A stretch of DNA of 63,913 nucleotides, the filler included, from Stramenopiles sp. TOSAG23-2 (taxonomy: Eukaryota): the NCBI GenBank assembly GCA_900128395.1. It is 3 parts of 3 records of this genome, joined end to end, with 100 filler letters (N's around TTAATTAATTAA, not from the genome) between each part and the next. Parts side by side here need not be neighbours in the genome. Positions count along the whole stretch, not along the records: positions 1 to 22,899 come from LT649499.1; 2 more parts are not named here. One strand, written 5' to 3'. The translations under genes and the position numbers were made by a program. Every line of letters begins with the position of its first letter. The first letter of the stretch is position 1. Of the stretch, positions 8,655 to 9,677 are shown one piece after another. The notes under the pieces were generated by a model. That model saw only the letters and a program-made list of their open reading frames with translations, made no database searches and was not told the origin of the DNA.

Positions 8655-9120
8655 TTTAGATATTTTATAACAAAAAAACTCTTTTGAATAAACAATTGTT
8701 GTTGTATGAATATGTTGTATAATCTATCTATCTCTTTTGTATAATTATATATTGTGTGTGTACATGTGGTCGTCTGGTTATAACACATATCTATCTGTAT
8801 TTATTAATATCTATACTAATACCAGGCATATTCGTCTATTATTATTTGTAAAGTGCTTTAAAAAAAAAAAAATCATCAGCACAGCTAATGGTATTCCATG
8901 CTAATATGGATTTGATGGACACTTTACGCCGAAGCAAAGGCTACAAAAAAGTACCATCACTCTCTTTCAGCTATTTTTTAACATTGCAAAACTATTAAGG
9001 TATTATTTCACAAAATCGACGCAGACTAATAGGAGAATCCGATACTATTTTATTACTCTAACACATATGATTATGCCTCTAACAAATTAACTTCAAACAA
9101 AAGGTACTAATATCATACAG

Positions 9121-9250
9121 GATATTTTATTTACATTTAGAACCTGAGCCTGATTCAGATTCAGATTCAGATTCAGATTCAGATTCAGATTCAGATTCAG
9201 ATTCAGATTTTGATGCTGATTTGAATGAAGCAATACGAAAATCTATTTAA
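9121..9250 (+). pseudogene. C-terminal gene fragment: (DS)n tract followed by a UIM-like motif
   Basis: Translates IFYLHLEPEP(DS)9DFDADLNEAIRKSI*; no in-frame ATG, and upstream frames are interrupted by stops. Confidence 0.45.
9152..9208. repeat. (GATTCA)9 hexamer repeat
   Basis: Directly visible; encodes Asp-Ser on the + strand. Confidence 0.95.
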
Positions 9251-9295
9251 AAATTTTAATTTTTACTTTTATTTTTTTTACTATCTCTAATCTTA

Positions 9296-9460
9296 TTAAC
9301 AATATTTAATTCTTTCATATAAATTACCTTCATAATTTACTCCTAAACCACAATGGTGACCCATAGATCCTTTGATATTTGCATAAATTTTACCACCTAG
9401 TGAAGTCCATAAATGACAAAAACCATAATCTTCTGATAAATATTGTTTTATTTTTGTATA
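9296..9460 (-). pseudogene. 3' fragment of a GT2-like glycosyltransferase of the type common in giant viruses/phages
   Basis: Manual translation [53 protein letters not shown]; matches the YLSEDYxFC..W...GGKI.A......H.G...Y.G C-terminal motif; the N-terminal part is absent. Confidence 0.65.
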
Positions 9461-9677
9461 GATTTTTTTAAACACGAGACACGTTAAAAATTTATGTTGT
9501 GTACATGTATATATATATATGCAATTTCACCTATATTTTTATTATAATTGCTCTTGTGTATGTTCCATACATACATACATATATATATACATCGTATAAA
9601 TCTTTGCAAAACATACCGCTTCTATCGTATTTGCTTTTATTATGATTTTAAAAATTTCCTTTTTACTATTAATATAA

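Follow-up and report, generated by a model that had tools for sequence, protein, structure and literature searches.

A fragment of a GT-A glycosyltransferase gene, at positions 9286..9458 (minus strand), stands among host genes in a 63,913-nt stretch of three joined parts from the protist Stramenopiles sp. TOSAG23-2 (assembly GCA_900128395.1), referred to here as the window. The fragment is dead and equals nt 669-840 of the 882-nt gene of a metagenomic contig (L081), or residues ~223-280 of a 291-aa protein (P0004). It is likely that this scrap is captured DNA of a large, AT-rich DNA virus of eukaryotes, held in the nuclear DNA of the protist, with a donor that was most likely a Nucleocytoviricota relative of L081 and of a second contig, L082. 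A first-pass annotation of the same sequence had already proposed an endogenous giant-virus fragment here; a dead virus-type piece joined to host DNA is indeed present, and the giant-virus part of that proposal has found neither a hallmark gene nor a closely related named virus to lean on.

At the nucleotide level, positions 9458-9286 of the minus strand could be aligned with L081 2358-2529 and L082 10669-10840 over 173 columns with 90.2% identity (blastn, E 4e-62). The homology starts abruptly at 9458, and the two contigs match no other part of the window. The minus-strand frame is open from 9526 to 9296, with its stop at 9296-9298, and is homologous only to residues 223-275 of the 291-aa relatives. 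When the 60-aa translation of this piece was compared by phmmer with 1.84 billion representative proteins, 75 matches were obtained at E<=0.001. The best foreign match was P0004 (89% identity, E 3.9e-26, query 7-59 against residues 223-275), and the remaining ones were at most 57% identical over most of the fragment (50-57% for the next-best). A 94-aa protein with 100% identity (P0003) is essentially the same locus in another assembly. The Pfam scan of the open reading frames (ORFs) of the window left the piece unrecognised. The C-terminal signature of the family, YLSEDYxFC..W..GGK(I/V)(Y/W)..H.G, is found at 9448-9330 (minus strand), and its columns are invariant or nearly so in a 31-sequence alignment. 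The GC content at third codon positions (GC3) is 0.08 in the glycosyltransferase piece; the five host ORFs compared range from 0.18 to 0.32, and the viral genes from 0.10 to 0.11. Both the existence of the fragment and its strongly A/T-ending codons, which the first-pass annotation had pointed out, are thus confirmed.

The full-length relatives have 240-310 aa and a conserved N-terminal half (ESLIxRARN...THLxFIDSDI). They match PHROG 1574, a family of unknown function, at E 1.6e-23 to 1.5e-41 (P0004 at 1.6e-23), and the family profile gives a weak match (E 3.5e-4), located in the N-terminal half, to the GT-A glycosyltransferase A197 of STIV (PDB 2c0n). In Pfam they give only a sub-threshold match to Anp1, and in NCBIfam no match. 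The fragment of the window keeps the C-terminal signature of these A197-like GT-A glycosyltransferases (PHROG 1574, STIV A197) and differs from them in having only ~58 of 291 codons, the nucleotide-sugar-binding half being missing, so that it cannot be an enzyme.

As judged from the sequence, the window copy is a functionless remnant of a member of this family and no working enzyme. Five full-length relatives compared with all 63.9 kb by tblastn matched only 9302-9472, everything else having E>=0.3. The first 222 codons, including the DxD-type acidic motif FIDSDI, have no counterpart in the window; the nearly invariant D74 of the DSD motif (P0004 numbering) falls in this missing part. The last ~14 codons of the transferase gene lack homology in the window too. 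Furthermore, the copy carries a frameshift lesion at 9296..9302 (minus strand), where one extra T (9301 or 9302) with respect to the viral gene creates a TAA at 9298-9296. The viral KYVNK(V/I)RN is converted in this way to KYC and a stop, and the fragment ends in RIKYC. The homology at the DNA level extends ~12 nt beyond the premature stop, to ~9286, and the shifted frame (9300-9256) reads VNKIRDSKKNKSKN before its own stop, the first five residues agreeing with the viral VNK(V/I)R. This second stop (9258-9256) lies 5 nt from the stop of a plus-strand frame described below. The truncation at both ends together with the frameshift identifies the copy as pseudogene scrap. Fragment and viral gene are separated by 16 substitutions in 172 sites, distributed 5/2/9 by codon position, and L081 and L082 differ from each other at 22 of 873 sites (6/1/15). 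The 5/2/9 split is not significantly uneven (chi-square, p about 0.1), and the 9% divergence may only in part post-date the insertion.

The two donor-like contigs came from a scan of metagenomes with P0004, which matched 26 stretches; two of them encode a relative, L081 (5.2 kb, 100%) and L082 (11.1 kb, 98%). In both the transferase gene is a single uninterrupted ORF (intronless, 882 nt, 291 aa). The contigs overlap to give ~13.8 kb of combined sequence with a GC content of 21-22%, and their ORFs (106-814 aa) are found on both strands, intronless and densely packed. By Pfam they include a GT1 glycosyltransferase, a small ATP-dependent ligase domain, an 814-aa protein with GT2 and GT10 domains, an XK-related membrane protein and an HMG-box protein; a deaminase is just below the Pfam cut-off, and four ORFs have no Pfam family at all. 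Of 8000 candidates scored against the 814-aa protein, 72 are relatives, and contigs of 70-310 kb carry several of these. The sole organism-named one is a glycosyl transferase of Paramecium bursaria Chlorella virus (32% identity over 98% of the query, E 1.4e-120).

In addition, a 9-mer, AAATTTGAT, occurs seven times in L082 (2.5 expected; none of 200 shuffles reached 7) and three times in L081 (1.0 expected; 18 of 200 shuffles reached 3). Seven of the ten copies are located 36-71 nt 5' of an ATG and in the orientation of the gene, which accounts for 7 of the 13 start codons. These upstream copies are at 2158-2166, 3320-3328, 7459-7467 and 9945-9953 of L082 and at 1631-1639, 3248-3256 and 5053-5061 of L081. 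The host window has no excess of this 9-mer (eight copies, 5.1 expected; 16 of 100 shuffles reached 8). This motif may serve as a promoter in a virus lineage not yet described. The low GC, the dense intronless genes, the eukaryote-type domains, the chlorovirus-like protein and the upstream 9-mer all point to a large DNA virus of a eukaryote, with a promoter type of its own, and Nucleocytoviricota would be its most likely affiliation. The XK-related gene of L082 (7915-9399) codes for 494 aa and is supported by a Pfam E of 6.6e-14; the Atlas clusters closest to it are XK-related families of animals, 90-100% Eukaryota in composition, and it may possibly be a lipid-scramblase-type gene that the virus took from a host.

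Several results weigh against this affiliation. The ~13.8 kb of donor sequence contain no Nucleocytoviricota hallmark gene (capsid, PolB, A32, VLTF3 and RNA polymerase were considered), and the mimivirus octamer AAAATTGA is not positioned 5' of the genes of the two contigs. Four of the 11 donor ORFs match phage families (PHROGs), one of them strongly (phrog_4786, E 8e-37). No relatives were detected in IMG/VR by single-protein scans with P0004, the 814-aa protein and the XK-related protein; a scan with the family profile reached at most 39% identity, the value of the nearest IMG/VR contig (L001), and a back-translated EDYGFCHLW pattern led to three contigs whose gene is only 30% identical. The Atlas clusters of the family consist of 93-98% viruses, most commonly Uroviricota, so that the family is not specifically one of giant viruses. 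The first-pass annotation was right about a virus-type glycosyltransferase, which in the libraries belongs to a mainly phage family (PHROG 1574). In the phylogeny the fragment and P0004 are paired with an SH-aLRT of 100 within a clade of 12 rows (98), and the other half of that clade, the sister group of P0004 and its kin, holds L001, whose ORFs read as a DnaB-like helicase and a primase, that is, as a phage. The tree was the product of a quick search with a hand-picked set of 40 database proteins and 10 of 80 IMG/VR loci. The branch of the gene family that holds the fragment probably came originally from phages.

All of this could be accommodated if the donor had been something other than a giant virus: a phage or a bacterium that was eaten, another eukaryotic virus, or a viral region already endogenous in this protist or a related one, in which case L081 and L082 would be cellular DNA. 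We consider such a donor unlikely. The 90%-identical gene has XK-related, HMG-box, GT10 fucosyltransferase-type and chlorovirus-like 814-aa genes as neighbours, the contigs have long A/T-rich spacers and the common upstream 9-mer, 7 of the 11 ORFs have no PHROG match, and a GC of 21-22% is well under the 26-43% of the host. A transfer in the reverse direction, in which a virus took the gene from the host and the window preserves the decayed original, is barely credible, although giant viruses do capture host genes and the XK-related gene of L082 looks like such a capture. All 75 relatives of the fragment are members of a family that is labelled viral in the libraries, no intron-bearing eukaryotic version was seen among them, and the host piece has a virus-like GC3 and is apparently subject to an insertion/deletion in the population. 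The family being viral in every library, and the host having only a broken piece of it, the transfer went from virus to host.

The scrap begins 221 nt 3' of the stop codon of a host gene on the same strand. This gene (9678..11297, minus strand) codes for a glycoside hydrolase of family 5 (GH5) as an ORF of 539 aa (Pfam Cellulase E 2.2e-16, Glyco_hydro_5_C E 8.2e-11). The region 3' of its stop (9457..9677, minus strand) is continuous with the gene in contigs of RNA libraries and contains variable (TA)n microsatellites. A 1641-nt RNA contig of library X12 runs from 11081 to 9457, with two differing letters in the 1485 of 9597-11081 and none in 9457-9495, and RNA contigs of X16 and X18 begin within 9535-9597. 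The GH5 gene is covered by contigs of all three RNA libraries and the adjoining 7835-9337 is uncovered, which favours transcripts over stray DNA as the source of these contigs. The scrap is therefore located in, or just past, the 3' untranslated region of an expressed host gene. Over 9338-9504 the RNA libraries provide only a contig end, and 9129-9285 and 9496-9596 were masked as repeats; no joint touching 9138-9458 is listed for the three libraries, whose contigs do not cover the two fragments. A joint in X12 leading back from 11299 to 9429, with 26 other letters in between, was set aside as probably foreign or repeat-driven. DNA contigs of run X2 are present over 8893-9128; the X2 depth of 7.1 over 9338-9504 was not used as evidence, as at the 90% threshold it could come from the virus itself.

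The junction with host DNA is found twice. The contig behind P0003 (1938 bp) belongs to a different assembly, and in it the host 3' sequence runs straight into the transferase scrap in one frame; to stay in this frame takes (AT)7 in place of the (AT)6 of the window. The host/virus junction at 9458 is consequently not peculiar to the assembly of the window. It has to be set against this that the samples of P0003 and of P0094, a protein described below, may be non-independent of the window or of X12. Within the single contig of the window the scrap has host-like sequence on both sides. The window has a GC of 26-43% and GT-AG introns of about 100 nt, and its host genes include those for a tubulin-tyrosine ligase, an RBBP4-like WD40 protein, a protein kinase, a COMM-domain protein and a protein with leucine-rich repeats (LRR) and LNR. 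The link to flanking host DNA that the first-pass annotation had asked about therefore stands, with the junction seen in two assemblies and 9457-11081 supported by RNA contigs.

A chimera of assembly or amplification, with viral DNA from an infected or contaminated cell joined to the host in vitro or in silico, might have produced a similar picture. The best-matching DNA data set for the stretch is very small and may be its source, and the edge of viral homology is exactly where an RNA contig of the same population ceases to follow the window. We find this quite improbable, given the host-like flanks on both sides in one contig, the P0003 junction in a second assembly with another microsatellite length, and the 16 substitutions plus a frameshift that set the scrap apart from the known viral gene. 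Moreover, if the reading of a loose contig end given in the next paragraph is right, the flanks are adjacent in a form of the locus that has no scrap, which would fit a true insertion site and not a random chimera.

The RNA contig of X12 follows the window as far as 9457, a single base away from the homology edge (9458), and continues with 14 other letters. On the minus strand these translate, after ...LVFKKIY, as KSK and a stop. P0094, a 58-aa protein from a 2009-bp contig of another assembly, ends in ...LVFKKIYKSK and a stop, i.e. it shows the alternative junction of X12, from its right-hand side only; the 12 bases of alternative sequence from 9457 are common to both. A search for the 14 letters on both strands of the window gave no exact match, a single one with at most one error, at 9124-9137, and 31 with at most two errors. 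It is thus quite likely that an "empty" form of the locus exists that joins ~9137 to 9457, and that the window (with the P0003 contig) differs from it by a block of ~319 bp at 9138..9456, unassigned to either strand, which would hold the (DS)n ORF treated below, the spacer and the scrap and would be absent from the X12 contig. At 13 of its 14 positions the left flank of the block (9124..9137) carries the same letter as the loose end of the empty form. What tells against this form is that the data behind it are 14 letters and four codons, for its left edge the 14 letters only, and that the same letters would result if 9445-9456 varied collinearly, by two substitutions and a gap of 2 nt. This variant is the weaker alternative, and leaves the coincidence with the homology edge unexplained. 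Splicing was discarded as an unlikely source of the alternative junction: the edges are non-canonical on either strand, and one letter differs beside the joint. Most likely, then, the locus carries a small viral insertion that is still polymorphic and has not been fixed.

Two short repeats have a copy at each edge of the block: TTTTATTT (9125-9132 and 9446-9453) and TAGA (9138-9141 and 9459-9462). Either microhomology-mediated joining or a later deletion would be in keeping with them, and in DNA so rich in A/T they may be due to chance; neither the inverted nor the direct repeats around the block stand out from the A/T-rich background. In the 3' region of the GH5 gene the (TA)n and (TGTA)n microsatellites of 9496-9596 have other lengths in three further assemblies than in the window. 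These frame-changing indels set P0003, P0094 and a third protein, P0095, apart from the window, and at least three haplotypes of the locus are present in public data.

The second piece that the first-pass annotation had included in the relic is an ORF fragment without a start on the plus strand (9140..9250), reading EPEPDS(DS)9DFDADLNEAIRKSI. Its frame is open from 9083 to 9250 with no ATG anywhere and a stop at 9248-9250, so both pieces lack their 5' parts, as had been stated, and their stops face each other tail-to-tail at a distance of 45 bp. The spacer between the two stops forms no stable hairpin (z 0.11). The (DS)9 tract is a perfect hexanucleotide microsatellite, (GATTCA)9.7, at 9152-9209, and the GC3 of 0.06, although virus-like, is that of codons that are mostly one repeated pair. 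A ubiquitin-interacting motif (UIM) had been suggested for this piece. The Pfam scan lists none for it at E<=10, giving only weak matches to acidic low-complexity sequence, so the label is unconfirmed; the letters LNEAIRKS do fit the UIM pattern, phi-x-x-A-phi-x-x-S, a fit that carries no statistical support. The back-translated DADLNEAIRKSI pattern had no match in IMG/VR, and the peptide compared by tblastn with 82 fetched loci, including L081 and L082, gave matches at chance level only. Of the relic of 8870-9470 taken as a whole, the glycosyltransferase piece is viral in type, with its 90% nucleotide identity to virus-like contigs, and these searches brought up no relative of the (DS)n ORF.

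The chances that the (DS)n piece is viral too, possibly the 3' end of the neighbouring convergent gene of the donor, are about even. In favour of it we have the low GC3 and its putative membership in the same ~319-bp block. L081 and L082 diverge from each other immediately 3' of the transferase gene, which makes a different neighbour in the donor strain plausible. Host filler DNA, or a chance frame across the microsatellite, are other possible origins. That both pieces are instead the terminal exons of live, spliced host genes, one for a glycosyltransferase and one for an acidic-tail protein with a UIM, is extremely unlikely. It would agree with the GT-AG introns of ~100 nt of the host and with an acceptor-like tttacatttag at 9130-9140, before the plus-strand fragment. 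The tblastn comparison, however, revealed no upstream transferase exons in the window, and the minus-strand fragment, which starts 221 nt past the stop of the preceding gene on its strand, is frameshifted, with homology continuing beyond its stop. The close relative is intronless, both pieces are apparently missing from another haplotype, and Pfam gave no UIM match.

Captured viral DNA being the preferred reading, the most likely course of events would be as follows. An AT-rich large DNA virus would have infected a marine protist cell that survived the encounter, and a chromosome break 221 nt 3' of the GH5 stop would have been repaired by end-joining, trapping viral DNA. The captured piece would be ~319 bp long and span the ends of two convergent viral genes; after insertion it would have gained the frameshift, served no function and failed to reach fixation. 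What the sequences show is the homology, the lesions, the linkage to host DNA and that an alternative junction exists. This mechanism is inferred, and so are the assignment of the donor to the giant viruses, the place where the block begins on its left side and a viral source for the (DS)n piece.

The surroundings of the locus presented some other features. The stretch 7600-11400 is represented in marine metagenomes and metatranscriptomes of 13 studies. At 8213-8506 there is a perfect tandem duplication (147 bp x 2.0, 100% identity), located at the end of a plus-strand ORF whose start resembles a signal peptide and which has a Cys-rich segment and RCC1-like repeats; contigs of DNA run X2 are missing across 8336-8502, and the duplication could be very recent or an assembly artefact. 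At 7304-7355 and 7424-7468 the summed contig depth is 100-1300 in X16 (RNA) and X2 (DNA), the neighbouring host sequence having ~7-12 in X2, so this is probably a short repeat present in many copies. No Rfam families or tRNAs were found in the window, 7304-7468 included. Farther away, 34203-45493 (minus), 27407-33619 (minus) and 47679-48389 (plus) contain very long ORFs and an LRR protein with a Notch-type LNR domain. The long ORFs comprise two of 2915 aa and 901 aa with cadherin, PAN and F5/8C domains and one of 2070 aa with TIG; WW domains were also seen. Such a set of adhesion and receptor domains (cadherin/LNR/TIG) is presumably a holozoan- or choanoflagellate-like trait of the host.

The relic is ordinary in kind and no function is expected of it. 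Its value is that most marine giant viruses have no known host and most marine heterotrophic protists no known virus; a scrap embedded in host DNA and sharing 90% identity with a gene from an uncultured and very AT-rich virus offers a direct and testable pairing of virus and host. If the polymorphism is confirmed, it would also serve as a population marker of a fairly recent encounter.

Foreign DNA is also captured at repaired chromosome breaks in the case of organelle sequences (NUMT and NUPT). The piece described here resembles those captures in being short and non-functional, without mobile-element features and with short repeats at its edges; it differs in its source, a virus instead of an organelle, and in that its edge repeats are A/T-rich and may be due to chance. 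The upstream motif of L081 and L082 can be compared with the mimivirus early promoter octamer AAAATTGA, which according to the part of PMC5294985 consulted is present in the 150 nt 5' of 45% of mimivirus genes. Both are A/T-rich motifs ending in TTGA(T), the one of the contigs preceding 7 of 13 starts at the distance given above, and AAATTTGAT is one T longer than the octamer.

As for the donor, very low GC contents are given in the part of PMC6789865 consulted for ChoanoV1 (22%), CroV (23%) and the hokoviruses (21%). The ChoanoViruses (ChoanoV1 and V2, from a wild marine choanoflagellate; same source, same part) are similar to the donor contigs in the 22% of ChoanoV1 against their 21-22% and in their marine, predatory protist host, and the host of the window has a cadherin/LNR/TIG-type domain set of a kind typical of choanoflagellates; this likeness is to be taken as a lead only. 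One could go further and imagine a recent, still segregating capture from a ChoanoVirus-like giant virus that acts, like virus-derived insertions of some animals, as an RNA-based memory of infection, which we hold to be very improbable. Were it true, read-through host RNA would carry 173 nt of sense viral transferase together with the antisense of the end of the neighbouring viral gene, and the presence/absence polymorphism would be maintained by that virus.

Endogenous pieces of giant viruses in protists are already well documented, and this fragment adds another case. Nucleocytoviricota elements have been described in Euglena (PMC12455990), Amoebidium (PMC11244446) and a brown alga (PMC11890097). 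As far as the portions of these three reports at hand go, the likeness consists in viral coding DNA within host chromosomes, eroded by truncation and frameshift and kept as a record of infection. The elements in those portions measure tens to hundreds of kb, whereas here 173 bp are found in a block of ~319 bp, and, unlike them, the element of the window sits in the 3' region of an expressed gene and is apparently present in some wild haplotypes and absent from others.

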